Assembly (NCBI GenBank): GCA_050084515.1
Contig: CM114271.1
Span: forward strand, 42,408,001 to 42,472,000
Direction: 5' to 3'
From: Blasia pusilla
Taxonomy: Eukaryota
DNA length: 64,000 nucleotides
Shown here: piece after piece, positions 5,601 to 64,000 of the stretch
Layout: each line of letters opens with the position of its first letter
Numbering within the stretch: the first letter of the stretch is position 1
Program-made: the position numbers and the translations under genes
Notes under the pieces: model-generated
The model's input: only the letters and a program-made list of their open reading frames with translations
Database searches by the model: none
What the model was told of the DNA's origin: nothing

Positions 5601-5665
<65 letters not shown>
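5601..5665. repeat. (GA)n microsatellite
   Basis: Perfect GA run of 65 bp. Confidence 0.98.
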
Positions 5666-5669
<4 letters not shown>

Positions 5670-7871: not shown

Positions 7872-8047
7872 AGTAGGTAGTTCTATATTCTGACTTGTGT
7901 GTGTGATATGGATGAAGGCGACTAACGATGGGGCCACATGAGCACCCGGCCTTCTTGCTCTTAGCGTCTGAGAGATGTATGTTATGGTAGGTAGGGATAG
8001 ATGGCTATCTAGAGTTAGAGGGACCTAACCACCAGCTAGGGGGGCGA

Positions 8048-9520: not shown

Positions 9521-9531
9521 TCGTGAATGTC

Positions 9532-13303: not shown

Positions 13304-13304
13304 A

Positions 13305-13975: not shown

Positions 13976-14129
13976 TACACCACACAATGGGTGTGGTATC
14001 CAAGGGTGTCATTGTAGCACTCCCTGCTACCTCGGGTTCCTCAAACCCATCACGCTCCGGTGCAAACACCTCGCTCCACGTAGTCTGCACGTGCTCATCT
14101 GCTAATCGTCGAAGGTCCTCTGTCGACCC

Positions 14130-19972: not shown

Positions 19973-22900
19973 TTAGTCAGGGTAGGGTTGCGGCTGATGA
20001 TACCATCGAACATGTATGCCATTGACGCGAGTCGGCAGTGCCTCTCCATTTAATGTTTCCAACTGCACTGATCCATTATCATATATTGCTAATACACGGT
20101 AGGGTCCCATCCAGTTCAATTTTAACTTCCCGCAGAACTTCAACTGGCGGTTACCATACAGCAACACCACGTCCCTAATACTTATAGATTGCGGCCTTAG
20201 ATGTCGGTTGTATTGTTCTTTCCGTTCTCTCATGTAGGGCTATGACCCGTGCTTCCTCCAACGCCATTAAGATCTCATTCCTCCCTTGGAGAACCCCTAT
20301 GGCATCCTCCGTTCTATTCTCCTCCAAAACGCGATAAGTGGGTAAATCCCATTCAATAGGAATCAAGGGTTGAACTCCATAAGTAAGGTAAAATGGGTAT
20401 ACTTGGTGGTAACCTTCTTTGTTGTCCAATAGGCCCACAACGCCATTGGGATTTTTGCGTCCCAATCATAAGAATATGAAACCGTCAAGCGATTCAGTAT
20501 CCAACAGATAAGTCCATTAGATTTTTTGGTTAACCCATTGGCTTTAGGATGGGTGGGATGCTTGATTAAAAAGTGGGAAGTCAACGACTCAATAGTCTTG
20601 TTCAAGAAGTGAGTGCCATGATCACTTACCAACTCCAATGGGTAGCCATACCTGGTGATAATCATTTTGTTTAAGAATTTGGCCACGGCCTCACTATCGT
20701 CTTTGCGTGTTGCAACGGCCTCGACCATCTTAGTACAGTAGTCGGTGGCTATAAGAATATATTTCCACCTTGTTTGGTGATTAGTTGAAGAAATAGGCCC
20801 CACAAAATCAATGCCCCATTTCTCAAAAGGAGCTAAGGGCAGGATTGGCACCAAAGGCCAGCGAGAGGTAGCAGTTGGTCTTCGTGCTCTTTGACATGCA
20901 TCACAACTCTCAATAAATTTTTCTACATCCATGTACATGGTTGGCCACCAGTAATGTGCCACCAAGATATTCTTGACCATGTTCTTAATGGCATAGTTTC
21001 CTCCCGAATTGGCTGCATGCATGGCCCTAATAACGCGAGAATTTTTCTCTGCTTCCAAGCATCTTTGATACTCTTTATTAGCACCTAATTTGAGTAATAC
21101 TCCGTGACACAACTCATACGGGCCTATTTAATGTAAAAAAATTGCCCGCTCCTCCGTCGTCATACGGACAAGAAGTTGTAAGGTTATCAAAAAATTCAAA
21201 ATTTCTTCATACAGGGACTAGCATAGTTGGTCCTCAGTAATCTGGAATAGGTGCTTGTCAGGGAAGGTGTCGTCCAAAGTCTGTGTAAGGTCCGCCTTTG
21301 TCATCCGCAACCTTGATAAGAAATTTGTGTTGGTATGTACCTTTCCTGCACGGGTAATTACATCGAATGTGAATTCTTGAAGTAACAAGATCCACCGCGC
21401 AATTCTTTCGAAAAGATCCGCCTTGACCATTAATGGTTGGAGAGCAAAATGGTCCACATGAAAGACAAACTCATACCCTAAAAACTAATGACGGAACTTC
21501 TTACAACAGAATACCATTCCGTGCGCTTCCCGTTTGATAGTGGTATATTTCTGTTCGGTCGTAGATAATTTCCGACTTGCGTAATAAACCGGATAATCAT
21601 GTTTGTTATCATCAAGTTGGCTGAGCACCACCCTTATGGCAAATGACAATGTGTGCACGTACAAGTGGAAGGGTTTCGTCATGTTAGAGGGCCAAAGTAC
21701 GGGAGTTGCAAGCAACGCTTGTTTTAATTCTTCAAACGCTTCTTGGCAGGTGGGGGTCCAATCCCATTCGATGACCTTAAGCAAAGCGGTTAGGGCTCCT
21801 GCTTTTACTGCATAATCCTTAATGAACTGTCGATAATATTCGATATGGCTTAGGAATCCCCTCAGTTCTTTGAGGTTTGTGGGAGGTTCCAATGCTACAA
21901 TAATATCCACTTTGGCCTTGTCAACCTCAATCCCCTGGGAGGACACTCGGTGTCCCAACAAGATAGATACCTTGTCTCATGGAAATATACGACTTTTCAG
22001 GATGGAGGGATATATGCCAAGGTTAACTTTAATTTGTGCAAATGCTCCGCCTCCGAACTGAAAATACAAAAAATATGGAGGAAAATTTTGATGAATTTCC
22101 GAGGATACTCTTTGAAGATGGAGATCATTATCCGCTGGAAGGTTGCCGTCCCATTACACAGCCCAAACGACATCACTTGATACGCGAAGGTGCCCCATTT
22201 GGTGGTAAATGTTGTGAGGGGCCAATCTTTTTCCCTAATGGATACGTGTATATAACCCGAGTACCCGTCCAAGAACGTATAATGCTTGTGGCCAGCGACT
22301 TTTTGTCCAAAATGATGTCGATGAAGGGTAGGGGATGATGGTCCTTCAAGGTGACCGCATTCAACTTGCGATAATCTTGGCATACCCTGATCTTCCTCGA
22401 TTGCTTCTTTGGTACAATCACAATGGGAGATACCCACTCGCTGCTCAACACGGGGTAAATAACTCTTGCTTCGAGATGCTGGTCTATCTCGTCATTGAAT
22501 AACAACGAGTATTTGGGATTAAGGTGGTATTGCATCACACGCATTGAGATGATGCCCGATTTTAGATTGATTCGGTGTTCACCATACTTCGCGGGAACAA
22601 CATTCATTTCATCCATGGCATACGTGAAGATATCCAAGTACTCAAGCAATACATTTTTATAATTAGTGAGTTATGTAGGGGACAAATCCGCCGGAAGGGA
22701 TAAGGATTTCTGACTTGTAATTAGGACTTGTACATAGTCCTTTTCTTGAACCATATTTTCCGTAAACGGGAATGTGCTATGGCCTTGTTTTTCTTCTCGG
22801 TTGACCTTTGTTCTCTAGACGTCGAATCTTCGTCGACTTCATAGCATTCTAAATAATATACATTAGAGGAGGACTCAACAACTTTTGTTTCCTCCTAGTT

Positions 22901-24950: not shown

Positions 24951-24960
24951 GGTAGTGGTG

Positions 24961-26985
24961 TGTGATACCCAAAATTTTGTACTTTTAGAGATTTATACAT
25001 TTTGATTCAAGGAATGAAGACTCTATGAAGTGAAGATTGTACATATAAGATTGTTTTAGATATTATGTTTGTGAATTGGAAGAATGAGTAATATTGAAAT
25101 GGATCACAAAGCTCCTAGGACAAGGCAGAGAGGTGGAAAATCAAGGATTTGCCTTAGAGGAGATGGAAATGGAGTAACGAAGTCTAAAGACTAAGAGAAA
25201 AGCTTGGACAAGACAACGAAGCCTTATTAAGAGCTTGTTAATGAAGTGCTTTGCTCTTGAACAAAGCATGATGAAGATGAAGAGGAAGAAGTACTTCGCT
25301 TTTCAGCGAAGCACAAAGCACTTGGAAAAGAGCGAAGAATGCAGCGCTTCACCCTCAGGAAGAGCTTCGTCCTCAAGGGAAGAAGAAGAAGTTGAGACTT
25401 CACAGCGAAGCGAAGCTAAGACTCGAAGTGATTTCAAGCATCACATTGTTAGAACAGTTAAACTAGGAAGAGGCGCAACTTTTTGGACTAGATAGGAAGT
25501 AAGGACAGTTACTCCCCGCAGATTCATAGCAATCATAGGAAAAGATAAGAGAATCGTAGATCAAAGTAGTTACAAACTCTCAATAGACACTAGATTCGTA
25601 AGAGACGCTTCCTACTACTGCCTCAGAAGATATTTAAGAAGCATGAAAGTAGCTATCATCATCATTCTTTCACGAAGTCCTTATGTTGTAGGAATGGTCC
25701 AAGCAAGGGAGTAGTACCCTCTCAAACTTGTATACACTTTGAAGCTTTCTCATTCTTGATGGAGTAGTAAAGCCTTCATTTCTTCATTCTGATGTGCGAT
25801 GCATATGTCTAAGAATTCTTATTGGGTCTGCAAAGTGAAGAGTGAAGCAGGAGAACACTTTCATCATTAGAATAATCAACATTGAGTCGTTAGAAATTTG
25901 TTCGACAACGAGTAGCCTGCCTAGACGGATTGAGTTTCGAAAGTATGAGAAGCCAACTTCTTGTTGAGGTCTCTGTGAGGTTCTTTGATGTTGAGTGAAG
26001 ATCTACATGAGCGTGAATTCAGTTCCACTCGAGAGAATCGAGGAAAGAAATGTTGGTACTAAGGGAGAGAAGAATACATTGATAAATGATTGAATCCGAA
26101 TTATAAACACTTAACTACATCTATTGCAAGATAAATGCCATCTTGAACTCTCCTTTCACATAACCATGATCCTCTTGGGGATCAAACTCATTAAATAAAT
26201 GTAAAAAGATCCATTCTTAATCTTCTGATACATTACATATAACCACAAATTTTTGGCGCCGCTGCCGGGGATCATAAGATTTGCTCGAAAGAGAGACACT
26301 GATGGGTAACCCCGGGCCGGGGAAGAAGCATCGTTGCCTAGGAGACCCAACCATCTAGTTCTCACCAAAGATCATCTCCTATCTCTAGGTATTCCCTTAA
26401 GACAATGGATGGAAGAGGATAGCAATCTTTTTGCTGCATTAGTACTAGAGAAGATAGAATAGTTAATTATTATTGTCAAAGAACCCGTCACAAAAGGATG
26501 CTTCGCCCATGAACCTCAGTTGTACTTGGTGATAACCCGCTACTTCTGTTTATGGGAGGAAAACCTGGCTGGTAGATTGAGGGCACATTCACACTTCCAT
26601 AGGAATTAGGAAGACCCAACTTTCTCTCCATGGATTGATATCCTGCAGGAGGCTTGGGTGCGCAACCAAGCTCATGAATCCTAGGAGGGACTCATGGAAG
26701 CCTTTTGGCCACCCGCTTGAGAACAGCAAGCTGACCGAGGTAATAAGCAACAAGAAGATCATCCGTCTTGGAGACCGCCGGGTGTATCTCCGAGACTTTG
26801 TCCTCGAACGAAGCCAAAGAGCAAGAAGAGGGACAGGAGTGCGCTCCGCGGCACGTCTCCTGCCACTTCGTAACTTCGGAAAAAGAGTCAACCTAGAATC
26901 CCTTTGGGGACTCGAGGGACGAGGGTCCGGCCAGACCAACCAAATCAAAACCTCTATCACCTCCTTCCGGAACATCAAGTCTGAA
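24961..26985 (+). mobile_element. Athila-like 5' LTR (24961-26247), PBS and leader, truncated
   Basis: TGTGATACCC...AACCACA, followed by TGGCGCCGCTGCCGGGGA at 26254-26271 (tRNA-Asp-type PBS characteristic of Athila). Confidence 0.8.
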
Positions 26986-26989: not shown

Positions 26990-28247
26990 CGTGAGAAAGA
27001 GTTTAAATTGGTGGTTATCTTGCAATAGTTGTAGTTAAGTGTATGAAGTTTGGATTCAATTAGGTACCATTGTATTCTTCTCTCCATTAGTACCAAGATT
27101 TCTTTCCTCAATTATCTCAACTGGAATTGAATTCTTGCTTAGGCAGACCTTCACTCAACACCAAAGAACCTCACAGAGATCTCAACAAGAAGATGGCTTC
27201 TCTTACTTTCAAAATTCAATCCGTCTTGGTAGGCTACTCTCTGTTGAAAAAATTTCTCACTTCTCAATGTTGATTATTCTGTTGGTGAAAGTTGCTCTCC
27301 CAATAAGATGATTCATAAATACATGTCGCACATCTAAATGAAGGAAGGGAATTCTTTACTATTCCATCAAGAATGAGAAAGCTTCAAAGTATATACAAGC
27401 ACAAGAGGGTACTACTCTCTTGCTCGGACCATTCCTACAGCATAAGGACTTTGTAAGAGAATGATGAAAGTAACTACGTTTATGGTCTTTAAATATTCTT
27501 CCAAACAATAGGAGTCCTAAAGATCTGAAGCGCTTCTTGTGAAGCTAGTACCTAATGGGATCTTGTAACTACTTTGATCTACCGTTCTCTTGACTCTTAC
27601 TGTGATCCCTATGAATCCGCTCATCTTAAGTGTCCTATCTTCCTATCTGGTCCGAAAAGTCATGCCTCTTCCTAGCCTAACTACTCTAATGGTGTGCCAC
27701 TTGAAATCGCAGAACAGTCTTATCTTCGCTGTGAAGTCTGAACCTCTTCTTCTTCCTTTGAAGAAAAAGCTCTTCCTCTTCTTCTGAAGACAAAGGGCAA
27801 CATTCTTCGCGCTTCTTCCAAGTGCTTTGTTCTTCCCTCTTCATTCTTCCGCGAAGCATTATTGCTTCTTCTTGGTGCTTCGTTGAAGAGCAAAGTACAT
27901 TTGCTTCTTCTTCTTCATCGTGCTTTGTTCAAGAGTGAAGCACTTCATAAAAAAGTTCTTTATTAGGCTTTGTTGTCTTTGCCAAGCTTTGCTCTTGGTC
28001 TTTAGACTTCGTGAATTCATTTCCTTCCCCTCCAAGGCAAATCCTTGATGTTCCACCTCTCTGCCTTATCCTAGGAGCTTCATACTCTACTGCACTACTT
28101 TTATAATATCCAATACTCAAAAATAATATTCATATAGTCTTATATCTGCAAACTTTACTTCAAATAGTCTTCATCCTTGAAGAGATCCATACTCAAGTTG
28201 AATGAAAATGTATTAATCTGAAAATTTACAAAATTGCGGGTATCACA
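26990..28247 (-). repeat. Second LTR of the same Athila-like family, inverted, lacking about 90 terminal bp
   Basis: The reverse complement starts TGTGATACCC and follows 24961-26160 colinearly. Confidence 0.88.
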
Positions 28248-29117
28248 CTTGGTCAATCAACATTCTTACTTTTCGAGTTTGTGAGTCGACCTCTCATCAA
28301 GCTCAACCTTCCTAGTTTCCTGGTTTACAACATTGGCAAGTCTTTCAAGACTTGGGACATACTTTCTGGTCGGTTCAGGAACCTCAAACATCGTTTGCAC
28401 GCCTAGCGGTCCCAACTGTCTAGTGGACATCCAATGAGTCCCTAACTTTGACTCAAAAAAATGAGTTGCGGGTTGGAATCCAAGTGTGGCTTAAGAAATC
28501 CACTCCCTTGGTTTAAGTTTGGATTTGGAGTTCCAACCCCAAACTCCCGTTCCATTTGATGTTCAGGGTTCAAGAATCCTTGGAGATACTTCCCCTTACT
28601 AGTATTTTTGGGGATCTTCGCCCTCTCCCTAACTTTGGGGAAAGAAAATTGGGCCCCCATTTTGGCCCTTAATCTAACTCCTCTTACAATTGTTTTCGGA
28701 AAATATCTCAACCTTTGCTTCAGCGTTTTTTGAGATCTTTGATGCGTTGTAATCGTCTTTGTATAAGATTTCCAATACCAACTTATTTGTCCCAAATGCA
28801 TCTTGGGACTAGACATTATGGTCCGAAACATAGTCAAAATCCCCAAACACTAGTCATGTTCCAAATATAGTTCTTACCTCTTTGGCAACCAACCTTCCTA
28901 GACTCAACTCATCTCAAGTCTTGGTTCACGTTTGGTCCAGGTTTCCTGGTCGCCAAACATAAATATTTGAAATGCACAAAATACATTGCCCATTTAGTCT
29001 CTTGGACTTTTCCAAGAGACCTCTCTAAAGCGCAACCATCCTAGCGTGAGCCCACTAAAGTTCTAATGTTTTGCTTGGCGTTTTTTGGGTGTTTGTTTGA
29101 TTATGAGGGTCTCGACT
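28248..29117 (-). repeat. Chromovirus-family LTR, 3'-truncated
   Basis: The reverse complement aligns by eye with 55974-56890 and with the 59011 solo LTR. Confidence 0.82.
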
Positions 29118-29119: not shown

Positions 29120-30200
29120 TCCATTGAGGAGTTTCAATGCTAGGACGATGAGCATGTTCAGATGGCCTAGTACGAGGCATTAGCACTAGAGTGTGATGGG
29201 TCACGGAATCCAAGGTAGCCTAGAGTGCTAAGATATCATCCTTGGATACCATGGTCATTGTGTGGTACATCTCAGAAGACGGTATTAGAGTGTTGGATCT
29301 CTTTGGAGGGAAAAACAATAGGTTGGTTGATTTTTTTGCAAGTTGGAATCCGTGTGCAACAATCCTTATACGTGGAGCTTGATGAGGTTGTGAGATGTGC
29401 CTCACTTCAACATATGGTGGAGTTATGCCTTTGTTTCCTTGTTATTTGTGTCGACCCTGTTAGGCTACTAGAGTTGCCTACCAAGGGACATTTCCTTGAC
29501 GGGGGGACAATACTTAAATAGGGTGGGGACCATTTATTTGGTCATTTCTGGTTGGCCATGTTAAGGCCAATCGAGTGTTGGATAAGGTAGTGGTTTAGTT
29601 CCCACACGGTCCATGCTATTTTTGGAGATAATGAGGATCTTGCGATACTTGAACCGTTCTCCAACTTGCATTTTGGAGAACATACCAATATTGGGCAATT
29701 TGCGGTCACGAGTTATGATGACTGCACATCATGTTTGTGTATGGATGTACCTTACAATATTTTTGGACGTGGCAAGTGTGAATTCACGAGCACATCACCC
29801 GCATCTATGGTGGACCAGCTTGGTGCTACATAAACTGTTGTGGAGGGAGCGCACGAGAGTAGAGCGCCCCTTCCATTTTTTTAAGGATTCCATTTTAGAG
29901 GTATGATGATTGACCTCCCTTGATATTGGTCAAGAAGATTGGCATGCAACATGCAATGTTTCCCATATTTTTCAATTTTCCTTCTTCATGTGCATATAAG
30001 GAGGTTGTTCCTGACGTGGTTTGGGATGACCACACACATCTATTGGTAGAGTCAAACGCCAATGAGTGAGAGCGGGAGATGGGATTTTCTAGAGGATTGA
30101 TGGTAGTACTATCACTCTTATAGATATCATGATGTCATGTCTTGGATCATGCGATGAGCTTGAATTGCTTGACATGGATGCAAGGATGTTCTTAGAGGGT
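29120..30200 (+). pseudogene. DNMT3-like methyltransferase fragment, copy C, heavily decayed
   Basis: GIRVLDLFGG; LVISGWPC*G; LFLEIMRIL; CILENIP; SRAHHPHLWWTSL; NANE*EREMGF; MSLNCLTW. Confidence 0.85.
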
Positions 30201-30719
30201 TGAGGTTTTTGGAGTGTTGTGCCCATGTGATTTGAGAACTTGGTGGTTGTGCATCATCAAGATAAGTTGAGGTATGTGACAATTTGGGGAGTTTGTAATG
30301 GACTAACGATGGAGAGGTTTCATCAAAGAGATTACGTCTACTTGCAATAGACAACATTTATGATGTTAGATATGACAAAAGAGTGGACCATCTTGAGAGT
30401 GAATGAGGTATTTCCATGTGGTTCCTTGGGGATGATGGATGTGCCTGAGATGTTTATAGAGTAGGTACCAAGTAGTCACTTGCATTAAAGATATGAATGA
30501 TAAGAAGGCGATTAGAGATGGGATCATATAAGCACCAAGCCTTTTTGCTCTTAGCATTTTCGTTTAGTAAAATGAACCACTATGTATCTTCCATTCTTAT
30601 TAGTATTAGAGAGAGTTTTATAAGTATTAAATAAATTAGCTTAAGGAAATTAATTTTCATGTTTAAACGTCTTAATGATGCCTCATTTGTGATGGCCCAA
30701 CTTTAGGGAAAAAGGTAAT

Positions 30720-32652: not shown

Positions 32653-33990
32653 TATCATGCGCATACACATCGCTACACAACCCACACCACTGGTCACATT
32701 TACATACCATAAAACACCGATTTTCCCCAACATACGGATAGATCCACACATAAATGAAACATACTCACGCATATACACCAGGACCCCACAACCGCCGCCC
32801 TAAGATCATGAGTAGTAAAAATGGCTTACCCGACCTAAAACTCCATTTATGAATCTACATCGGCATATCAAACCACATCCACCCTCCTCTATGAGGAAAT
32901 CCGGACGCTAGCACCCTAACACACGTCTATGCAACAGAGGCGCTCCTAAGGCTCAACATGAGAAAGATGGCCTGGACAAGCCATCTTCCTCATGCGTTGA
33001 TTGGGTCAATGGGTCACGTGCTAGACTAAAACCAAAATAGGGAAATTTTCATAAATGACGTTTCCGACATAACAGACCTGTCGCCAACCTCATCCGACAT
33101 CTCGGGACGAAGTTCCACCCGAACAACCCAGTGACTCTCTATTTCATCGACGCGATAGAACTCTACCTACATCGAAATAAGATGTGATAGCTGTCGTGCA
33201 TATACACATTGCTACACAATCCACATCGGTGGTCACATCTACATACCATACAACACCGATCTTCCCCCACATACGGGTAGATCCACACATAAATGCAACA
33301 TCTTCACGCATATACACTAGGATCCCACAACCGCCCCCCTAGCTGGAAGTTGGGTCCCCCTAACTCTTGTAGGGTAACCCTATCCTATACGCATCTAGCA
33401 CCATCAGGGCCGTCATCCCTCCAACACTACCACATTACAGCAAGTCGCCGTGTTGATTCCTCCAAAGAGATTTAACACTCTCGTACCCTACTCCAAACAT
33501 AGACACGGATCCACTCATGCCATACAAGCTTGTCTGCACTCCACGCATCTCAACGTTCATCCCCAACAATAATAATGAAGCCCCGGACCATGGGAAGAGA
33601 CACCCACCCTAGCATGTCTCTCCATGGGATTATCCACTATGGGAATGTCCTCCGCATGTGTGATCCTCTCCCCAAACCCTCCTGATCAGCGAACACCACA
33701 TGTGAATGCTGCCAACGTGGTCACCGTATCCTCACGTGGTTGACCACCACTACTCCCTGTAAACAACACCGGTAGATGGCTCACTCGTCCATTACCTGAT
33801 CGCCACCCTGGCGGAAAGGAAACCGTCTCCTCCCAAAATTCTAGAATGAAACCAAGGGGATACACGACTGTACTCCCTACCAACATATCATACGACTCTG
33901 TTGGTGTCGTAATCGCCCGAGTGCGCACAATCGCACTATCCGACTCATGCTCTAGTTGGAGTCTAACTACCAACTCCTATCGAGTCATGT
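32653..33990 (-). mobile_element. Internally deleted copy D of the DNMT family, with a complete B1-A2-B2 end
   Basis: Protease C-terminus (ESYDMLVG...PGW); MTase motif I RVLNLFGGINT at about 33440-33490; deletion to the 3'UTR; PPT; B1 33329-33192; GC spacer; A2 from 33189; B2 32790-32653. Confidence 0.82.
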
Positions 33991-34129
33991 ACTGCGTGGG
34001 TGATATGCCCCCAATCTATTGGTTGTTGATTCAACATATTCTGACTGAATGTTGGATTGCTTATACTTAAGGTTTCACCGCCGTTGATGCAATAAGAATA
34101 AAAAATTAAACTTATGTGGTGAGAAATAT

Positions 34130-34232: not shown

Positions 34233-35679
34233 CTTGTAATTCCTACGATGGAAATTCAGCATCTAGTTCCCATGTAACAACATTAATTTAAATGGCCTCA
34301 TTGTGTGAGGAGAAGCCTAGATAGATGGTCTTGAATTTAAAACTTTTATGTGGAAGGAGTCATAATTGTATGATATAGGTGGCTTTTAGAATAGAGCGTT
34401 ATTAGGATGATCTAAACCCATCTTGTATCTTCGCATCCTAATACGACCTAAGGGTCTGGGGGTGCAAATCTTGGAATTTATTATTCAGAAATATAATTAA
34501 AGAAAATAAGTAACAAATCTTAATTTCTTGATACGAGAAATAGTTGGTGACCTATCACGATAACGTAATCTTGTATGTCGAGTTTTCTTTGTGTTTAGGT
34601 TACATTGAAGTTTCACCATGACCGCACAGATGGACTAGACTACTTTGCATTTTCAAGATTTGTTCTATATTCAGCGATTTATTTGTATTATGTTTTCATA
34701 CACCTTCTCTCTCCGTTGTCACTATTTATTATAGAAAAGCCATTTGGGTGGTTAGCGACCTAAACCGACCACATCTGTTATCTATATCTATATTATAATG
34801 GGTGACCCTACATGTAAAATAAGACAAAATAGTGGGATAATAAGACAAAATAGCAACATGTTTGAATTTTTTTCCTTGACTTACATTAGAATCTTGCATT
34901 AGATGGGTAGAGAGAATGAGTTTGAGTGGAAGAGGAAAATGGTTTTATTGATTAATAATATAATTAATTTAAATTATAATGGGTAATCTTAGATGTACAA
35001 TAAAAAATAGTGGGATAATTAGAAAATATTTCAATTTTCCCTTTATTCATATTTGATGGGAAGGAAACTAAATTTTAATGGAGGAATAGATAGTGTTTAA
35101 ATTTTATTCAAGGGTGGAATTACTTAGTTGATTGGGATATGATTTAAATTTTAATCGAGGAGTAGAATTACTGAAAAGAGTGGAATGTTATTACTCTTCA
35201 AAGAATATCTAAATTATATCAAAATTTAAGGAAATTAAAAAATATTTTTTAATAAAATAATCATTAAAATATTTTCTATTTTTGAAAAATATTTTAAATA
35301 GAAAATATAAATGGATTAAAACTACTATTACTTTAATTAGTAGATGTAATTTTGGTGGAAAGAGTGTAAGAAGAAAAAATATTATTCAAATATTTATGGA
35401 GTAATGGAATTACTTAGGGTAGTTGGATATTAGATAAAACTCAAATTTGATTACTCTTTTGATACTTTAAAAAGATAAATTATATTTGAATTTTGAATTT
35501 AAAAAAAATCATTTTCTAGGGTCTGCACGATCATCCTTACTTTGTAATGAGTACATACGTGAAATTGGAATGTTTTGCTCCTCCTATGCACCGGTGAGAT
35601 GATTGGGAATGAATATGTGGAGGCTAATAGTGTGAAATTAGTGGACTCACGATAAATAAAGTTTAATCTCTAAGAAGAT

Positions 35680-36015
35680 GAAAAAAAATAAAAGCGATAG
35701 AATTTTTTTTAGAATACATCTTACTTAGCTCAAGACAAATTTTCATATATTTTCCTTTATTAATTTTGGAAAAATAATGTATCCCTTTCCAATCACGATA
35801 CTTCAATAAGTAAAAAAGTTCACTTATTTTGATGATTTTTTCCCAAAAGAGGGATTCAATTTTTTTCCCTAATCTTACTTGAAATTATTTTTAACAACAA
35901 TCTATCCTCAATTATTTTGAAGAATAATCATTTTCCCATTAGTGTCCTATGATCCTTTTCATTTTTTTCCCAATAGGAAAATTAATTTCCCCTCAAAACT
36001 AAACTTTAGAGTTGC
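35680..36015 (+). repeat. Dispersed AT-rich repeat
   Basis: Similar to 12550-12875, for example GATGATTTTTTCCCAAAAGAGGGATT in both. Confidence 0.75.
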
Positions 36016-46285: not shown

Positions 46286-48533
46286 CTAAACATTTGAAAT
46301 TGGTGTAGTTGGACAATCTTCTATACTTGGAGCCTCTATTGGAGTGTCCACATCATTCACGTATTTCTCAGGATTAGAATACACATATCTAAAGTGTGCA
46401 GAATTTTTCCAAAGCACTACCGATTCGACCAAAAGATCCTCATAGTCAACAATCTTCCCCTCCAATGCTATCCTTAGAACAGCATCTAAATGCTTAGTCA
46501 TTAATCTATTACGACACTTTGTCTTAATCATATTCTGCACAGAGAAAGCTCTCTCACAAATTGCAGTACTCACACATTGTACCCTAGCAATGTTAGCTAA
46601 TACAAGCAAATTTGAGAACTTATATTGCAAGGATGGACTCCAACTTACCATTGCCCACAGATCTCAAAAGTTCATGTCTTCCCATTCTGTCGTGGCCATG
46701 AGCTTAAATGACAGAAACTCTAGTTTTATTGCTGCTGGATTCACAACAGCTGGTTGCAATTGACCCCTCACAGGAGAATCTCTTCCAAAATGTGTACAAA
46801 GATCATCAACATCCTTGCAACCCCAACTATTCAACCCCACAAGCCTTGAGGGCATATGCAGAGGATTCAAAATCCTCATTGCACCTATCAAATTATTGTC
46901 CCTGAATCGATCTTGTAAGGCCGCACATACATTCTCAGCATAACTTTTCTGGAAAGTTAGAGCAACAAGTAAATCCTTTCCACTAGGATCCCTCAACATT
47001 TCAATACAATGATACTTTCTACCCCTGATCTCAGATTGCAATCGTTTTAAATAACCACCAGGGGGTCCAAAATCAGGTAAGAGATGGTAACCTGTTGCCT
47101 CCGAGAATGTAGAAGCATTCAAGTCATGACTCTCCATCACAAAGTTCATTGTAATAGAGGCAATTTCAGAATTCACAATACTACCAATGGTACTAACATC
47201 TACAAACTTGTACTGGAAAACCTTACTCAAGTTAGCAAGTATACATAAAATGTCTGCCAAAAAATACAACTAGTAGATCATTTGAAATGATCTCAACTTG
47301 TTGTACATATTAGCAACATTACCATCGTCTTCAGAACGGGGAATATCCCTGAAGTATGTAAGGACAGACTCCAATGAATCACACAAAGTAGTCACGGATT
47401 GCCATCGCGACAACCAACGAATTTTATGATATCTTTTCATGACCCTCTGAGAATCATTCAACTTCTCCTACAAAGCTGCAAGACCACACTTCCTCTTTGA
47501 AGACCTTCTAAAGTATCCAGCTATAGTATTCAAGATAGAATCTATTTCTATAGATACATCTTTGCACCCTACTCCTTTGGCTGTTGTCAAAGCAACTAAG
47601 TTAGTTCTATGCGCAACGTAATGCACAGATAGCAGAAAAGGATTCACCTTTTGCTTCAACTGAGAAGCTACTCCATTTTGACTACCTACCATAGTGGAGG
47701 CTCCATCTGATCCAAAAGCCACCATCTTAGAATTATCTAGTCCACAATCCTTGATCAACTCTATAAGATGGTTAGTAATTGAATTGGAACACTTCTCTGG
47801 ACATTGCAGCAATCCTAGATAAGAATTCTCCACTTGCCCCTCTTGTATGTATGTTGCAAATACTACAAGATGACCCGTTACTGAAATATCAGTAGATTCA
47901 TCAATCATGATCCCAAAAAAAGGGGATTGTTGCACTCTCAGAAGGGTTCTTCTATATAGCACTTCACTAATATAATAACACATTTCAGCACCACTCTTCT
48001 CATCCTGGTATAAATCTGGCATTCACAGAAAGAAGCAACTTACACAGATTCGGAAATTTGGCAAAAGCCATGGCTTCCTTCGCAATAAAATATGCGCACT
48101 TAAACAAAGTCAAAAAAGAAGTGTCACGGGTCCTATTAGTAGTGGCAATGGCCTTGACCATGGACTTGTTTCCTATATTTGCAGCCCAAGAAAGCTTCAC
48201 ATGTTCATTAGATTTACCATGATCTGTAAAGGCCGAAACCTTACAGTTTATGGCACCATCTCTTGCAAAGGAATTCTTGCCCTTCCCTTGTTTACAAACT
48301 TTGCAAAATATTTTACCGGATTCTACATGAAATTCTATCCAATCAAATAACGTGTACAATACATCCTTCCAAGCCAATCGATTCTTCTCGACTTGACTTC
48401 CGGAAGGAGCACTAGATTTGTCATTTTCCTGCCCATCCGATGATCCCGACTCGACCGACTTACTGCCCTCTGGAAAATCTTGGCTTACTTCTTTGTTTAA
48501 CATCTCGCTCATAGTTCGCTGTCTCTTAGCCAT
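46286..48533 (-). pseudogene. hAT transposase (ZNF862/DUF4371-like); one frameshift and several stops
   Basis: TTF-type finger FCKVCK...H..S..H; IMIDESTDIS; GSDGASTM; HYVAHRTNL; RWLSR; STAICERAFS dimerisation motif. Confidence 0.92.
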
Positions 48534-54356: not shown

Positions 54357-57004
54357 ATGATGGATGGTTGGTGGCGAGCTCACGGATTGCCTAGGAGCAT
54401 TGTGTCCGATCGAGATCCAAAGTTTACCAGTGCCTTTTGGAAACATCTATTCAGGAGGTTCCGGACCAAACTCAGCTTTAGTACGGCCTTCCATCCTCAA
54501 ACGGATGGGCAAACGGAAAAAGTAAACTCGGTCGTAAACCAATACTTACGGAATTATGTGAGTGCAGACCAGAGAGATTGGGCCAAGTGGTTAAGTATGG
54601 CTGAGTATTGTTACAACTCGACTAAGCATTCTGCAATCGGAGAATCTTTGTTTCTTCTTGCGTATCAAAGAGAACCAAAAGGGCCTCTTGACGTAGCTCT
54701 TTCAAAGGGCGCTACATTGACACACACTCGTCAAGCAACGGCGGAATGTTTGTTAGTGGAAATGCAGGAACGACAAGAGCGAGCAAGGAGAAGTCTCGCC
54801 AAGGCTCAACTAAGATACGTGAAGCATGCTAACAAAAGTCGGCGCCAAGTGAGTTTCCAAGTTGGGGAACAAGTGTGGTTGAGTGTAAAGAATCTCACTC
54901 TTCCGAAGGAATTGTCAGCCAAGTATGCTGGACCATATGTGATCAAGGCAAAGCTGTTTGAGGATGTGTACACATTGGAGCTACCAAACGAGTTCAAGAT
55001 TCACCCGACTTTCCATGTGTCACTATTGAAGAAGTGTCTTCAAGACAATGTGCGTCCGGAGCAAAGGAGGATGTTGAGACCACAACCGGTCAACAGAAAT
55101 GATGAACCAGAGTTCGAGGTTGAGACCATTCTACGTTCCAGACGTAGAGCCACCAAGTACGAGTACTTGGTCAAGTAGAAAGGCTACCGTGTGAAAGAGG
55201 CGACTTGGATTGCGGAGGCGGATCTTCAACACGCGCAAGAAGCATTGCGTGACTTCAGATTGATGCAAGAGAGGCACGTGCGTTAGTACATGGTGAAGCA
55301 ATGGACATAACTTGTGACTGGAAAGCTTGGGTCGATAACCCGGTGTAACTAGAAATGTTAAGTTGTTGCAATAAAGAAGACATGGATTTGGAGATTCGAT
55401 TCTTGTATTGTAATTTTGAGTTTGGTTTGTGCAAGGCAATGAGTATTTCTTCATATGCTTAGGATGTAAGTCAAGGGGACCAAACAATGAGTATTTGAGG
55501 TGAGAGCTTGTATTCAGATAAGGCATCTAGATCATGACCAAGTGTTGAAGTACTAGCATTTGGGCTCGCCCTAACGTCGGCGGGGCAGATGAGTCTGTCT
55601 CGGGGTTTGTGGTGATCTCATTCATGTTGCATGACTGAACTTAGTGACGCGCCTAGGTGGAATACAAGTGACCCAAAAGTAGTACGAGTTGGCTAGGTTG
55701 ACAGGAGGTTGTTTACAAATAGTGAGTGAAGTGTTAAGTTGCAGACTTAGTGAGCTTATTTTGATAGTTTAGATTAGTTCTGCAGAATTGGTCTAGCCTC
55801 ATCGAAAAGAAGAAGCTAATAATTCTAAGTGCTGCAAGCGACAACCTAAGACTTAAGCCAAAAGAGGAATTGCGGGTTAGCTACCAAAACGCGATTCAGT
55901 GTTAAGCTTCCCAGAACTTAACATTAATAAGGTTTGCGTTGATGAGGACATCAACCTTCTAAGGAGGGGTGAGTGTCGCAAACCTCATAACCAAACAACA
56001 CCAAATATGCACCAAACGAAACATCAGAACTCAAAGGAACTCACGCTGCGAGGTTTGCGCTTTGGAGAGGCGTTTGGAAAAGTCTCTTGGAAAAGTCTAA
56101 GAGATGAAACGCGGAACAGAGTTGTGCGATTCATGCGTTAGTGGTCGCGACCAGGAAACCTAGACCAAATGCGAGCCAAGACTTGAGATGAGTTGAGTCT
56201 TGGGAGGTTGGTTGCCAAAGAGGTGAGAACCAGTTTGGAACACGACTAGCGTTTCAGAGAATCTGACTGTGTTTAGGACCATAACCTTGAGCTCCAAGAT
56301 GCGTTTGGGACAAGTAAGGGCGCATTGAAAAGATGATCTTAAGACGCTTTCGACGCACCAAAGATTTCAGCGAACGCATAAGTACAGGCTGAGATATTGG
56401 CCGAAAATGATTGACAGAGAAATCGGGTTGAGGGCCAATTGGAGAGGCCCGAGTGTCTTTCCCTAAATGTAGGGGGCCCACGGAGATCCCCAGAAGTACT
56501 AGTAAGGGAGGACTCTCTCCGAGATATCTCCGAAAACGAATCCCCACTTTGGGCGCCAAACGGCGTTTTAGAGGCACGGGATGGAACGGGAGTTTGGCGT
56601 GGGAACTCGAAACCCAAACCTGATCCAAGGGAGTGGACTTTGTACGCCACACTTGGATCCCAACCCAAGATTCACTTCGTGCAATTCTTGATGAGGAACT
56701 CATTGGATGTCCATCGGACAGTTGGAACCGCTAGGCGCGAAACGCCGTTTCAGGTTCCTGAACCGACCAGAAAGTCTGTCCCAAGTCTTTCGAGATTTGC
56801 CCATGTTGTAAACTGCGAAACTAGGAAGGTTGAGTTTGATGAGAGTCCGAGACGAGAACTCGGAAATTAATCCCGCTGATTGATCCAAGACCCGACTAAC
56901 CAAAGTGCGTGTTTGGATGCAGATCAACGTTGAGAGCGTGACCTATTGAACCCATGCTTCTGCAACAAACAAGATTAACGTTCAACGAGAGTAGGCATAC
57001 GACA
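54357..57004 (+). mobile_element. 3' part of a chromovirus (Tcn1-like): integrase, chromodomain, PPT, 3' LTR (55974-57004)
   Basis: IVSDRDPKF; HPQTDGQTE; YAGPY; HPTFHVSLLK; chromodomain FEVETIL...YLVK*KGY...ATW; PPT AAGGAGGGGTGAG; LTR TGTCG...CGACA. Confidence 0.92.
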
Positions 57005-58037
57005 CTTGATCATCTCCCCAGTGCCACTCCTGATATGATTTCAGCAATTGGTTCAAAGGCTTTGCCATAGCACTAAATCCCTTCACATACCTCCGATAGT
57101 AGTTCGCCAATCCCATGAATGCCCGAACTCTACTCACATCTACCGGACGAGGAATACATGCAATAGCCTCCACCTTTGCTTGTTGAACTCCCAAACCACC
57201 TGGATAGAGCACATGACCCAAATACTCAAAATCCTCATGGAAGAACTTATAGTTTCTTGGATGCAAACGTAGACCATGAGCTTTCAACCGCTAAAACACA
57301 ATCTGCAAATGTATCAAATGCTCCTCCACCGTGTTACTGAACACCAAGATATCATCAATGTATCACCGAACAAAATCCAACCCTGCTAGGATCCTGTCCA
57401 TCACTCTCTGAAACTCGGCATGTGCATTCTTCAACCCAAAGGGTAAGAATTTCCACTGGTACAAACAATCCTTGCCATGAGAGTTGACACCCCAAAATAT
57501 TGTCTTGGCCTTGTCACTCTCTCAAATTGGCAACTGATGGTATCATGCCTGAAGATCCAAAGTTCTGAAAATCTTTGCATGTCTGACCACATCAAAGATC
57601 TCCTCAGGTGTAGGCATGGCATACCTATCGGCCTTGGTCTGCCAATTGATAGGACACTAATCTCCACACATCCGCCTATCCATGTAGTTGCCATGCACAT
57701 CCTTTTTAGTACGCATGATAGTGGCTGATGCATACTCTCCATGCAAAAACTCCACTAATCTAGCCTCCAAAAGGTCCAACATCCTACTCTGAATCAAGTC
57801 CCTCTCCATATCACTATATCGGTAGGGACGACGAAAGATTGGCGAATCACTAGCCAAATCAATCCGTACACCAGGTCCAACCAAAGCACCCAACTCCTTC
57901 ATGCTAAAGGCAAAACAACTCCTATAAGCACGTAGGAATTGTGTCAAGCGTCGTTTCTCACCTCCCCTAAGCTTGGGCCCAAGTAATGGCTCCCAAGTCT
58001 CCTCCACTGGCACACAAGAGGGAGAAGACGACGCCAT
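57005..58037 (-). pseudogene. Reverse transcriptase, copy B
   Basis: FRRPYRYS; MPTPEEIFD; YHQLPI; PFGLKNA; *YIDDIL; EYLGH; RAFMGLANYYRRY. Confidence 0.93.
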
Positions 58038-58269
58038 TGGCTGCTATGCCACCCCTCACAAGATGGTACACCCTTAGCTACACCACCATCTGAGCAAATA
58101 AATCCTCCACCAGCATGAGCAACCAACTCCACATGCCGAGTGATTACATCCCATTTACTCCAAGGATGCAAAATACTATTCTCCTCGGCCCCAGCCGATG
58201 TCTCTACCGTCCTAGTAGCCATCGAGCTCATCACAAGGGGTGGAAGACCCATAGACATAGTCCGAAGTC

Positions 58270-60250
58270 GACGTTGCTCGGCCATACCAAGACTCAAAAT
58301 CCAGGTCAAACAGTTCAGGTCCATGGCCTGACCCAACACATGACGTCGGGAAGCCTCAGAAATGGAAGCAACCGTTGTCACACAAGGAGCAAATCCCATC
58401 GCACGCTCTCTCTCATCAGCATTAGGCTCCACCAACTGTCGCACATGAGAATCCCATACAAGCCCAGCACCACCTTCCCTGTAGGCATGTGACGAGGGAA
58501 AACTCACAAATGTGGGTAGTGCCATCCTAGGCTGGCCCACATGGTTCATCACTACCATGGGTGACCAATCAATAACCCTCACCACCTGAGAAAGTCATCG
58601 AGTATCCAAGATACTATCCACTGTTAGGCAAGGATCCCGCTACACTGCATCATATGCTCGACGTAGAACCTCCCTAGGCAACAAGTTTGTCCACCACAAG
58701 CGTGAACAATGTGTACGCGAGCCAACTCGCGCTGCATCCAACAACATCGCTAGTCCAATCCAAGACCGCACCTCATGAACACTTGCCATCATCCGGGTCA
58801 GAGTGTCACCCAACAATGGAACATTCTCTAGACTGTAAGCTAGAGCACGTGCCTGATGAACTTGAAGATGTCCTAACACCCGCAACATCTCCCAAAACAA
58901 TCGAGGCCTAGAGTCGTGTAATCCCTCACCACGACCAGCACTTGTATGACCCTCACATGGCCATCCAGCAATCACCAAATCCACAGGACCAACCCTCTCA
59001 AGGTCCTACGTGTCACGACCCTCATGACCAAACAAGTGCCAAGCGGAACATCGGAACATTAGCGGGCTCACGCTAAGATGGTTTGCGCATCGGAGTTGTC
59101 TCAAAGAGGAGACAAGAGACGAGACGCGAGCGAGGAGTCGCGTTTCGGGTGTTATGGTCGCGACTGAGAAACCTGGACCAAACGCGGAATGAGACTTGAA
59201 AGAAGTCGAGTCTAGGAAGTGGGTTGCCAAAGGAAAGATCCGGATTTGGAACGCCACTAGCGTTTGAGAGTTTCCGACTGTATTTATGGCCATAACTATT
59301 AGCGCCGAGATGCGTTTGGAGCAAATAAGAGTTCGTTAGGAAGATTATGGAGAGCCGGTCCAAACGCACCAAAGATCGCTGCAAACGCATAAGCAGCGGC
59401 CGAGATACAACCCGAAAACGACTGTAAGTGGAGTCGGGTTGAGGGCCACAATGAAGGGCCCGACCCTCTTTTCCCAAAGGGGAGGGGTTATTGGAGAACC
59501 CCAGAAGTACTAGTAAGGGGGAAGGTCACCGAGAGTGCTTGGAACCCAAACCCCACTTTGGGCGCCATGGGCGGCTCAAGGGCATGGAACGGAACGCGAG
59601 TTTGGGGTTGGGTTGGAAAACCTGCACCAAGTCCAGTGAGGCGATTTTAGACATCCCTCTTGGATTCCACCCCGCGACTCAATTACTTGGATCTCGGTTC
59701 GGAACTCACCCGAGGACCGTTGAACAGTTGGGATCGCTAGGCGCGCAAGTGCCGTTTCAGATCCTTGGACTAACCAGAAAGTCTGTTCCAAGTCTTGAAG
59801 GACTTGCCATGTGTTGGAATCTAGGAACTAAGGAAGGTTGAGCTTGATGAGACGCCGAGTGGAGGACTCGGTGGGTTGGAACGCCGGTTGGCCAAACCCG
59901 ACTAACGAGAGTGCGTGTTTGGGTGCAGATCGGCGATGAGTTTGTGACCTACTGAACGCACGCTTCCGCAACACTAAAGATTGACGTTCAAGGAGAGTAG
60001 GGGCGCGACACTACGCCCCCAACAATGCAATGTGTGACCGCAAAGCAGGCTTGTACCCATGAATAGCTGATGGCGGCAACAACTCAAGATATCTCCACAT
60101 CAAGTGATCAATATGTTGGGATGAGACTCTCTAGGCCATCTCATCTCGCTCCATATACACGTATCTCCGCACAGGAATACCGGCCTGCAACACTGCAGCC
60201 AAACCAGTGCTAATCCCACCATAGAGATCTAACACACAAATGCCCTTCGG
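58270..60250 (-). pseudogene. DNMT3-like C5 methyltransferase, copy B, split by a solo LTR
   Basis: VLDLYGGISTG; YVYMERD; GPVDLVIAGWPCEG; RLFWEMLRVL; YSLENV; LLDAARVGSRTHCSRLWWTNL; ERERAMGF...SRRHVLGQAMD. Confidence 0.92.
59011..60010 (+). mobile_element. Chromovirus-family solo LTR (1000 bp) with 5-bp TSD CTACG
   Basis: CTACG-TGTCACG...CGCGACA-CTACG; homologous to the LTR at 55974-57004. Confidence 0.95.
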
Positions 60251-60567
60251 CGGATACTGCCATACAATGGGTGTAGTATCCAAAGGGGATAACTCAACTG
60301 GACGAGAAGTAGGTGTGCACCGTGGGGCCTCCTCTTCCTCGTGAGGTATAACAGCCTCACACCAAGCCTCTTGCATTAGGCGATCAGCCTCCTGCCGTAG
60401 TGCACCGCTTGAACTCCAAAGTGGCACATCCAACGATGACGATGCCTCTATTGCAAAACTAGGGACCTCCTCTACCTCCTCATGCACAGGAGAATCCATA
60501 GCAAAAAGATTACCCTCCAAAAAGTCTCATGGCCAAGTGACTACTCCACTAAAACCAACCACATATG

Positions 60568-62925
60568 CTAACACCGTTGGGGAAGACCCTCTGGTCGAGC
60601 CCCAAAAATAAATCTTAGAGGAACCTGGCTCATATGTCCATCCTCGGACTGCCAACCAGGTCTATAAGACGTTGTCTTAGTCCAGTAGTCCATCTGAAAA
60701 CCCATCGGGTACAATAATGCTCCTCCAACTAGTACATCATACGACTCCCCTGATGTGACCACTCCAGGTACTCCCAACCTGGAGCTATCAGTCACATGAT
60801 CTGGTCTCAATTGTATAGACAACTTCTCCCATGTCATGAATTGAGACCTATCATTGGCTCCTCCAAGTGATGTTTGAATGTGGAATTAATGGGCAAGGCT
60901 CATGCTCTGACCTCCGAATACCCAAACCAATACATGCCGCCTTTCCCAACATCAAAGGTTGGGCACCAAAGTCTAACAAGACTCTATTTGGTCTATACAC
61001 CTGTCCTGTAGGACTCACCAATCGGAATATCCCACTTCGGTTGTCCAACATATATACACCAGATGTAAGCCTCCACGATCAATGGCTGGCCGGGTTGGTA
61101 ATGTATCCATGTTCGCCGCTGTTGCCTGCCAAGTAGCACTGGTACTCAATGCTACACCTGACATAGAGGGTCACTCCACCGCAACACCCTCATCCACCTC
61201 AACACGTCTAGCAATAATACCCCCACGTTCATACAACGTGGTTGCTAGCTGAAATACAAGAGCTAAGTCAACTCCTAAAGCCATAAGCTCCGTGGCCGAA
61301 AACAATGGGGATCCCAACACTGAAGTTGCCATCCGCAATATTGCACTGGATGTTGCATCCGTGTCTACTACACGCAATATAGATGCCTCAATCCCCACTG
61401 TAGGATCAATAGGCTACGTAGGAACCATGGATGGAGTCCTAAGCACCTCAGACAACAAGAATGACTGGGGAAGCCTAGCCTGCCTCCCTGCCTCACCCTA
61501 TTGTGGGTCCAACTCCACAATAGCACCACGTGGCTCTGACGCTCAAGTGGCTCCTCTCGTAACTGGAGTTGATGCCTCAATCTGTGTTGCACTCCCCATA
61601 TAAGAGAGATCATCCCCTCCATAAGAGGTGGAAGCCCGTGCTCCCGAACGTGCTCTATGCTGGATACCAGCCATAGTAGCTAACTTATGCTCCACCTGCT
61701 CAATCCTGGCGGCCATAGCTGACTCTGTCGTAGTGGTAGGGGTAGCCACCGTAGGCTCTCCAACCACTGGTCCACCTCTACCACCCCGGCCTCTCGGAGC
61801 TACTCCACCACGGCCGCGGCCTTATCTCAACTTTGGATGAAGATCAAAGCAACGCTCTCGAGGATGACCTGGTCTCCTGCAATGATCACACTTCGTTGGG
61901 GCTAACTGAGGTCCATCCTCCCAAGTCCATCTCCCATCCTCTTGGGGACAAAACCTCCTAACATGATCACCTCCACATGTCCAACATGATTCTCCTTCCT
62001 GCGGGGCAACAAATGAAGGCAATGGTCTTTGCAAAAGTGTCCCTCTAGGACCTGACTGAGGTCGTGTGTACCCCCACGACTCCCACTACTACTACCACCA
62101 CCACTACTAGGAGATTTTGAGGTGGACTGCTGAACACGAGAAGTAGTAGTTGTATCCCTACTGAATACGGATGTCACCACTCTCTCCTCCACCATGTCAA
62201 GCTCAATCTTCTCAAATAGAGCAAACACATGGGTCAATGTGGGTGAATCATCACTCATAAGAGTAGCATCACGTACCCTACGGCGCAACTCTCTGTTCAA
62301 GATCCCATACCAAAACTGGACTGTCTGAGCCTCAGTCACACCCTGGGTAACTGAAATCAAGCGTCGCATACGAGTTTATGCCTCATGAAGACTCTCACCA
62401 ATCTTTCGCTCAAATTCGTGAAGACTCCTCTACTTCTCTGTCTTCACTCCCTGATAGTTCTTCTTCAACCTCTTGAAGAACTCTGCAACCGAGCTGAATG
62501 ATGGTGGGGCAATAGTACCTCCACTAGTACCCCCACTGGTACCTCCATGGGTACCTCCACTCGTACCCCCACTACGGCTCGTACTCGTACCACTCAACGT
62601 CGGGCTGGCTGGCATAGTAAAAGCACTACTACCAATACCACAAAGGTGATAGACATATAGCCTGGAGACCAATATTGTCTCCACGCCTCAATCTCAGCAA
62701 CATGGTCCTTCCTGAACTCATGTTAATCATCCATGGGTGGTCCGTCCAAGTGCTGAAACAACCCCTTCCAAACCAAGAAAGGTGTAAACAACGTGGCGTT
62801 CCGCAACATCTGCATATCACACCACGTATCAAACTCAATCGTGCCCAGTGCACTCGAGTATCAACCTCCTCGATCAATCCATACTTTTGGTATCTACACC
62901 CATCAAGTGCCAAACTCACCGTCAT
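60568..62925 (-). pseudogene. gag and protease, copy B
   Basis: Zinc knuckles at about 61850-61990; protease LLDFGAQPLMLG...SYDVLVGG...SYRPGW, colinear with copy A. Confidence 0.82.
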
Positions 62926-64000
62926 TATAGAGCGGCTGGCTGGCTTCGCAAATCAGAATGGAATGGATTACTGGCGGACGCAAAATGATTCATAACATGC
63001 CGTATTTCCATGCCGATATTCAAACGTCGAAAGACATAATTTCCTGCCGCGTCATGAACATCTAGCGAAGTTTCGGACTTGTATCGGACCCTAGAAATTT
63101 ATTGACGTTTCGAATCTGAATCACTCCGCCAGAGATGTTTCTTGACTGGAACAAGATCCACCTCAATTCGTGTAGTGGGAGGAATGCATATGGTGGTGGC
63201 GGTGGCGGTGGCCTTGCGTTTCACGAGTGCAACCTAAACTCGATCCGTTTCTGTTGTCCTTGCAACCAAGCATAGATGCAATCCAGACTTATGGATTGTA
63301 TCTGTCTAGAATACCAACCTTGATTCGATAACAATAATTGTCCTCAGCTGCTTCCATGCATGCATAGCTGGAGTCCAGACTCGATAGAAGCAACTTTTTC
63401 GTAATCAATACTCGCGATCAGCCAGGAGGAAACCTACAGCAAGGTCGATCGACGGCAGCAGCGGAGTGGAAAGAGGAATGTGAAACAGTTGGGAATGAGC
63501 CTACATTGCTGAAACTGGAAGTGTATGGCTCCTGGACTCGATCGACTCGTGTTCTTAGCTTACTTTCGTGCACGAATGGCTGGGATCCAGACTCGGTGGA
63601 TGCCCGCTCTGTCTAGTGGAGACTCTCATTCCAACCTGACGAACCATTCCACCGCAAGTTCGATCGAGTGAGCTGCTCCACAGACGGTTTTTCAATTGGA
63701 CGGAATCCAGGCTTCGTAGACGCCCACTCAGTCTACCGTAGGTCTGGCGGGCACTCTCGTTCCGACCCATGCACCGTTCCCACAGCGATGTCGGTCGTGT
63801 GAATGTCTGGGCTGCACTGGCGGCACTGCAAAGCAGCTGCAGCGTTTGCACTCTACATACAAGTGCCACGGACACCTAGTGCATGCCCAATTCCGAGCAC
63901 TCGCTACTCTCGTTTCCCACAGACTGTCCTCGAATCCTCCCTCGCTGGCTGCCCGCCATGAACCGCGTGCAAATATCCGATTCAGCAGTTTGGCATTCGC

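Follow-up and report, generated by a model that had tools for sequence, protein, structure and literature searches.

The 64,000-nucleotide stretch of DNA analyzed here, termed the window (Blasia pusilla, assembly GCA_050084515.1, contig CM114271.1, positions 42,408,001 to 42,472,000 of the forward strand), is a nest of transposons in which four Ty3/gypsy copies, A to D, carry C5 cytosine methyltransferase (MTase) motifs downstream of the protease. The copies are best read, with a probability of about 0.8, as dead members of a Ty3/gypsy-type family encoding a DNMT3-type C5 cytosine methyltransferase, with read-through of a stop codon and methylation of the element's own DNA as the mechanism we infer. 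The family is a land-plant member of the known Gypsy-DNMT3 kind, and what is new is its anatomy, which comprises an MTase on the Gag side, a conserved stop codon, a PHD finger, split repeats in the relatives and a second, algal architecture.

Window copies and identity of the domain

The copies were mapped by tblastn with full-length relatives and by a motif scan over all six frames, giving the layout below (RT, reverse transcriptase; LTR, long terminal repeat).

57027-62860, minus strand: copy A, gag-protease-MTase-RT remains, truncated at both ends
60527-62860, minus strand: copy A gag (CCHC) and protease, split by frameshifts into four tblastn matches that differ in frame (query: residues 14-765 of the Marchantia protein P0005)
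60014-60292, minus strand: copy A MTase, N-terminal part including motif I, from the tblastn map and motif scan
59011-60010, plus strand: solo LTR of 1000 bp inside the copy A MTase, bounded by TG..CA and flanked by the 5-bp target duplication CGTAG (59006-59010 and 60011-60015)
58106-59005, minus strand: copy A MTase motifs IV, VI, VIII, IX and X with two in-frame stops, from a PF00145 match on 58640-59005, translation and motifs
58044-58046, minus strand: copy A in-frame TAG separating MTase from RT, followed by CAGCCA, which fits CARYYA
57027-58043, minus strand: copy A RT, truncated by an LTR at 57006
8273-15998, minus strand: copy B, gag-protease-MTase-RT-RNaseH-integrase, near full length with many stops
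11589-14024, minus strand: copy B MTase, from the tblastn map
11210-11212, minus strand: copy B conserved TAG, followed by CAACCA
29227-30428, plus strand: copy C, an MTase fragment (ending at 30183) fused to an integrase C-terminal fragment (30207-30428) with internal deletion
33449-34015, minus strand: copy D, a protease fragment (33620-34015) and motif I alone (VLNLFGGINTA, 33449-33475), from tblastn and motif scan
7710-7868, plus strand (opposite to copy B): PHD-finger fragment from the integrase C terminus of the DNMT-carrying family, from tblastn with the C terminus of ORF2 of relative L001 (57% identity over 53 amino acids)

A sequence-only reading of 58270-60250 had described ordered MTase motifs in copies A, B and C and motif I alone in copy D, in a slot between protease and RT; the six-frame scan bears out the motifs and the tblastn map bears out the slot in copies A and B. 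The motifs of copy A run on the minus strand from I (LDLYGGISTG, 60206-60232) through IV (GWPC, 58955-58966), VI (LENVP, 58817-58831), VIII (SRLWWTNL, within the open reading frame (ORF) at 58640-59005) and IX (ERERAMGF, 58391-58414) to X (GQAMDL, 58316-58333). Copy A has all of motifs I, IV (PC), VI (ENV), VIII, IX and X in order, with the catalytic Cys and Glu. The minus-strand motifs of copy B lie at 13926-13952 (I), 13695-13706 (IV), 13557-13571 (VI), 13422-13448 (VIII) and 11853-11876 (IX) with a duplicated VI at 12278-12292 and VIII at 12143-12169, and its RNaseH and integrase are identified by Pfam matches. Copy C has motifs IV (29550-29561), VI (29673-29687), VIII (29796-29822) and IX (30064-30087) on the plus strand, its degenerate motif I being visible only by tblastn at 29227-29343. 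The fragment at 7710-7868 is the sole PHD trace in the window.

The C5 methyltransferase profile PF00145 matches the copy A piece at 58640-59005 above the curated cut-off of 22 bits (E value 1.4e-6, 28.4 bits) and ORF1 of the intact relative L001 with 51.1 bits; the other two of the three copy A MTase ORF pieces match no Pfam family when scanned alone. Searching the MTase domain of P0005 against PDB sequences gives 29 top matches that are all DNMT3A/B/C (best E value 2.3e-11), the next being 4onj at 5.7e-5 and DRM2 at 0.013, and no DNMT1 is present among the matches up to E = 1. The AlphaFold model of the intact MTase domain from relative L006 has a pLDDT of 91.7 and a predicted template modeling (pTM) score of 0.90, and all 33 Foldseek rows listed from ranks 1-50 are DNMT3A/B/C, with target-normalised template modeling (TM) scores of ~0.75-0.81 on catalytic-domain chains and 0.39-0.54 on longer chains. 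The motif order is ordinary, without the DRM permutation. An alignment of 16 proteins of relatives shows the F and G of motif I, GWPCQG, ENV and AH.R..W to be invariant, and ERERAMGF is conserved to at least 90%. The PDB sequence matches, the Foldseek comparison and the unpermuted motif order support the earlier assignment of the domain as DNMT3-like, an assignment based on sequence similarity and a predicted fold.

With the catalytic domains of host DNMT3A/B the transposon domain shares the fold (TM ~0.8 target-normalised, for the predicted model), the motif order and the catalytic residues. It differs in having ~20-22% identity to them, in being ~45 residues longer and in being embedded in Gag-protease, and neither a PWWP nor an ADD reader domain is matched by Pfam in L001 ORF1. 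Passages of PMC12344493 describe algal and protist DNMT3s as likewise being without companion domains.

Relatives, selection and the stop ahead of reverse transcriptase

Protein searches find the Gag-protease-MTase arrangement in many Marchantia polymorpha gene models, in Calypogeia fissa, in three Sphagnum species and in many metagenome contigs. The proteins nearest to the window copies are from bryophytes, the C-terminal part of copy A being 71-73% identical to Sphagnum-type proteins, and nearly all long proteins among the 150 best matches of an exhaustive profile search are transposon-borne. These fall into two architectures, with the DNMT placed between protease and RT in architecture 1, the window type, and the order RT-RNaseH-DNMT-integrase-PHD in architecture 2, which has one named member, the 'pol' of Scenedesmus sp. 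PABB004 (P0115). The integrase of the DNMT-carrying family ends in a PHD finger and not in a chromodomain (L001 8053-8187, ORF2 residues 990-1034), and the finger is kept in 15 of the 21 loci matching an integrase C-terminal query.

A quick maximum likelihood tree of the domain (LG+G4, no outgroup) was calculated from 116 of 195 domain sequences, rows at least 80% alike and those containing over 12 X having been removed. Architecture 2 makes up one clade with an SH-like approximate likelihood ratio test (SH-aLRT) value of 99, in which 49 of the 66 rows are typed, 17 are untyped and architecture 1 is absent. The window copies group with sequences of Marchantia, Calypogeia and Sphagnum in a clade of 22 rows (support 100), and copy A is separate from the pair of B and C, which places them in different subfamilies. 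A locus search with the single protein P0087 retrieved no relative, and an alignment query did retrieve relatives. One family member, P0314, is filed as a 'DNA cytosine methyltransferase' of a Candidatus Obscuribacterales metagenome-assembled genome and probably stems from plant or algal DNA that was binned with a bacterium.

The ratio of nonsynonymous to synonymous substitution rates (dN/dS) between the intact relatives L001 and L003 is 0.12 for the MTase (321 codons, with a dS of 1.4 that is near saturation), 0.20 for the protease side, 0.43 for the tail ahead of the stop and 0.06 for RT-RNaseH-integrase. Between window copies A and B the values are 0.09-0.40 for the MTase pieces and 0.28 for RT. 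The neutral control is the duplicate pair of copy B, in which the duplicated segment compared with its own internal duplicate gives 0.96. These codon comparisons establish purifying selection on the MTase domain in the family. Because copy A and copies B and C split into subfamilies in the tree and relatives occur in three bryophyte genera, the domain is not restricted to one clonal duplicated lineage, and the value of 0.12 between intact relatives is not that of a neutrally evolving sequence. The proposal that the domain is a stable, inherited component of the family is supported by the separate subfamilies, the three named genera and this constraint.

The ORF1 of intact relatives comprises Gag (CCHC), the aspartic protease and the MTase as the C-terminal domain. 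Some retroviruses also have the protease on the Gag side. L001 ORF1 (976-5082, 1369 amino acids) contains the protease, with a weak match below the Pfam cut-off, and the DNMT, and is followed after a TAG by ORF2 (5086-8226, 1047 amino acids) in the same frame with RT, RNaseH, integrase and PHD. L003 and L004 are arranged as L001, with ORF2 in frame with ORF1 in all three intact loci, and the ORF1 stop of intact relatives is located ~90-155 residues past motif X. A survey in which the start of the RT-side region was sought in 79 metagenome loci and on both window strands recovered 21 junctions (19 of the 79 loci, and window copies A and B), all 21 having a stop 22-29 codons upstream of the RT-side start. 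The stop is TAG in 14 of the 21 and TAA in seven, and is followed by CAR and two pyrimidines in every case. The exact sequence TAG-CARYYA, given in the relevant passage of PMC5382211 as UAG-CARYYA, the type I read-through signal of plant viruses, is present in six of the 21 junctions including those of copy A (58046-58044, CAGCCA) and copy B (11212-11210, CAACCA). Among the long database proteins of architecture 1, 19 of 23 end 30-157 residues past motif X and the remaining four, which run on past the stop, are spliced gene models. From the junction survey we infer that the stop is probably read through in the DNMT-carrying family. The expectation that protease, MTase and RT form a single open frame therefore holds for the frame but not for its openness, since the conserved stop divides MTase from RT.

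Decay, transcripts and element ends

None of the four window copies is intact and all carry stops. Copy A has two in-frame stops inside the MTase and frameshifts in gag, and copy B has stops in motif I, after motif IV and in motif IX. The solo LTR separates motif I from motif IV in copy A; with its TG..CA ends and 5-bp CGTAG duplication it is a solo LTR and not an intron. The description as intronless needs the correction that the segment 58270-60250 is interrupted by this 1000-bp insert and by the two stops.

Copy B has a 319-bp direct duplication in its MTase (12030-12348 and 13309-13627, 92% alike), which is too long to be a target-site duplication and brackets ~960 bp of foreign DNA, part of which (12542-12876) resembles 35672-36014. 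Copies B (13695-13709, minus strand) and C (29550-29564, plus strand) both read PC* where intact relatives have PCQ, a CAG to TAG change at a CHG site directly after the catalytic Cys. B and C are sisters in the domain tree, and the PC* could represent parallel deamination or a methyltransferase-dead element that still multiplied.

Three RNA-seq runs with the same species label as the best-matching DNA data were mapped onto 56900-63900 at 90% likeness. The depth is 20-120x across 56900-62983 with a strong bias to one read direction, falls to ~0-2x across the solo LTR (59011-60010) and is zero past 62983, and most reads are 90-95% alike to the window. In each run 16-17 reads join 59007 to 60014. 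DNA contigs carry the same joined form, so the join is present as DNA and is not a splice, and the transcribed members have an uninterrupted MTase. The reads of paralogues continue beyond 57007 into other sequence.

The ends of the element are best seen in the Sphagnum-type loci L014, L044, L053 and L065, which are independent insertions with unrelated flanks and a total length of ~9.1-9.2 kb. Each shows split repeats in the arrangement A-coding-B-A-B, formed by A (~340 bp), the internal region, B (~115 bp), A and B, with termini TGTCATG...CACGACA and a polypurine tract ahead of the first B. L006 has the same pattern and is cut at its end, giving four complete loci and one cut locus among the 23 relatives' loci examined. 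The B1/A2 junction of the four complete loci reads CACGACAA directly followed by TGTCATG, is palindromic and is similar to an LTR-LTR circle junction; the integrated form corresponds to a two-LTR circle opened within one repeat, an unusual state for a DDE-integrase element. No A-coding-B-A-B repeats were found around the window copies (the copy B flanks were examined, and copy A is truncated at both ends), and copy B has no direct terminal repeats. The copy B flanks contain only scattered inverted matches (8179-8263 with 18103-18187, and 5139-6126 with 17832-17173) that look like pieces of other elements.

The solo LTR belongs to a ~1-kb LTR family found at 4999-5138, 28286-29090, ~55985-57006 and 59011-60010. 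One LTR end at 5136-5160 is followed by a primer-binding-site-like TGG and a leader (5139-6126), and this leader has an inverted homologue in front of copy B gag (17832-17173). The LTR at 56000-57006 comes after a chromodomain-type integrase (54375-55178, plus strand), and the candidate owners of the LTR are the DNMT-carrying family and this chromodomain gypsy element. An imperfect palindrome (24960-26151 and 26998-28248) with arms of ~1.2 kb that are 74-84% complementary and spaced by ~850 bp adjoins the LTR preceding copy C. The other transposons in the window are as follows.

679-3784, plus strand: copia element (gag, RVT_2)
20363-22649, minus strand: second gypsy element, without methyltransferase
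47468-48022, minus strand: hAT-like DUF4371 fragment

Known systems, mechanism and meaning

DNMT-carrying retrotransposons are known from Klebsormidium and dinoflagellates, and the sections of PMC5890265 (de Mendoza et al. 2018) used here describe KnitGypsy-Dnmt3 of Klebsormidium nitens as a gypsy pol with an intronless, non-permuted Dnmt3-like domain in the polyprotein and a Ka/Ks <0.2. The A-coding-B-A-B arrangement, described there for DIRS elements, is stated to hold for KnitGypsy-Dnmt3 too, and the acquisition is presented as specific to the K. nitens lineage. The bryophyte family is like KnitGypsy-Dnmt3 in carrying a DNMT within a polyprotein of the gypsy order RT-RNaseH-integrase, in the purifying selection on the DNMT and, for Sphagnum-type relatives, in having A-coding-B-A-B repeats in place of plain LTRs. 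It differs in its hosts, which are land plants and not a charophyte alga; the likeness is drawn from that description and not from K. nitens sequence, and no Klebsormidium protein is named among the protein-search matches or cluster look-ups. The green-algal gypsy element represented by Scenedesmus P0115 shares a homologous DNMT (~35-42% identity), the gypsy pol and a PHD at the integrase C terminus, and differs in the position of the DNMT between RNase H and integrase and in forming its own clade in the domain tree. SymbioDIRS-Dnmt3 of dinoflagellates, as outlined in the same sections of PMC5890265, likewise has A-coding-B-A-B repeats and a retrotransposon polyprotein that includes a Dnmt3-like domain, but with a DIRS tyrosine recombinase in place of the DDE integrase (Pfam rve) of the bryophyte family. 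The type I read-through of plant RNA viruses, in the passage of PMC5382211 cited above, shares UAG-CARYYA with the six junctions; the stop of the bryophyte family, presumed to be leaky, is placed after protease and methyltransferase and not after Gag. Later papers, in the portions that treat Gypsy-DNMT3, give only 'streptophytes' (PMC12344493; bioRxiv 10.64898/2026.05.21.726589). A full-text literature search, with most subscription journals and supplements outside its reach, found no description of a bryophyte Gypsy-DNMT3, and term look-ups in PMC6453930 and PMC11982613, confined to the text retrieved by those terms, were negative.

In the proposed mechanism Gag-protease-MTase would be the abundant product, with the MTase made in Gag-like amounts, and read-through of the leaky stop would give RT-RNaseH-integrase(-PHD) as a rare product. 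The element's protease would free the MTase, which would be carried in the virus-like particle. The leading candidate for its substrate, at somewhat less than even odds, is the element's own new DNA before or at integration, and the effect could be that the new copy passes as host-like methylated DNA or has its chromatin state set. The sequence-only reading had put forward the cDNA of the element, its circle or the insertion sites as candidate targets. The PHD finger of the integrase suggests chromatin-guided integration.

The MTase could instead be a passenger, a captured fragment of a host DNMT3/DRM or a chance nesting by a host gene in one duplicated lineage that has since decayed neutrally. 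The stops in all four window copies and the neutral dN/dS of 0.96 within copy B would fit such an origin, but the domain occupies the same slot in four copies of at least two subfamilies, shares an unbroken ORF with gag and protease in L001, has a dN/dS of 0.12 between intact relatives and invariant catalytic residues, and the family extends over three bryophyte genera. This origin is already contradicted by ORF continuity, constraint and spread and is highly improbable. A functional MTase with another target, either host chromatin or other transposons in trans, RNA, or a role as a DNA-binding or tethering module, is a less favored possibility that still deserves weight. The high dosage expected from the Gag-side position would fit action in trans equally, the PHD finger makes chromatin part of the element's biology, and a DNMT carried by a LINE showed no de novo DNA methylation in yeast, an RNA role being discussed in the corresponding section of PMC5890265. 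The catalytic Cys, ENV and the motif VIII arginines are invariant or nearly so, which speaks against a role that is structural only, and the fold and closest relatives are those of the DNA-specific DNMT3 and not DNMT2. It is rather unlikely that the stop is a plain terminator, with re-initiation or a spliced or subgenomic RNA giving rise to RT-RNaseH-integrase. TAA and CAACCC depart from the type I signal at seven and 15 of the 21 junctions, respectively, but ORF2 is in frame with ORF1 in L001, L003 and L004, an ATG-led restart is unnecessary, CAR is always the next codon after the stop, and no RNA joint near 58044 is present among the best-supported joints listed.

The reading of the copies as a self-methylating family with a leaky stop has several points to its disadvantage. 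Methyl transfer to cytosine by the family enzyme is a predicted function, and its activity, substrate and sequence context are putative. No window copy is intact, so activity of these particular loci is not supported, and the transcripts derive from paralogues and not from copy A because only 3-4 of the 1620-2191 reads per run are at least 99% alike to the window; if the libraries follow the customary stranded convention, as is assumed here, the favored read direction is the sense direction of the element. The junctions with CAACCC instead of CARYYA and those with TAA (mostly decayed copies) lack the exact signal, and relative P0087 (2188 amino acids) has no stop between MTase and RT. An ancestral origin of the stop shared by copies B and C would mean that an element kept multiplying although its methyltransferase was broken. 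The CpG observed/expected ratio of the element, 0.28-0.77, is expected of any methylated plant transposon and does not discriminate.

A wider and more speculative proposal, doubtful at present, is that Gypsy-DNMT3 is old across green plants, and not a peculiarity of Klebsormidium, in two fixed architectures, that the land-plant MTase, encoded with Gag ahead of a leaky stop, is carried by each particle in structural amounts and methylates the cDNA before PHD-guided integration, and that it may shape bryophyte methylomes, for example that of Marchantia. With transcripts of such elements present in bryophytes, de novo methyltransferases from transposons may have a share in these methylomes. The finding also carries a warning for annotation, in that DNMT3-like gene models in bryophytes, including several from Marchantia, belong to transposons. 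Methylation is usually viewed as a host defence, a picture that is inverted by transposons equipped with a de novo DNA methyltransferase, and the Gag-side MTase behind a conserved stop offers a concrete and testable idea on dosage and timing. The only streptophyte case found in print is an alga; the liverwort and moss elements, transcribed and under selection, move the question to genetically tractable land plants, in which knock-outs, methylome maps and read-through reporters are routine.

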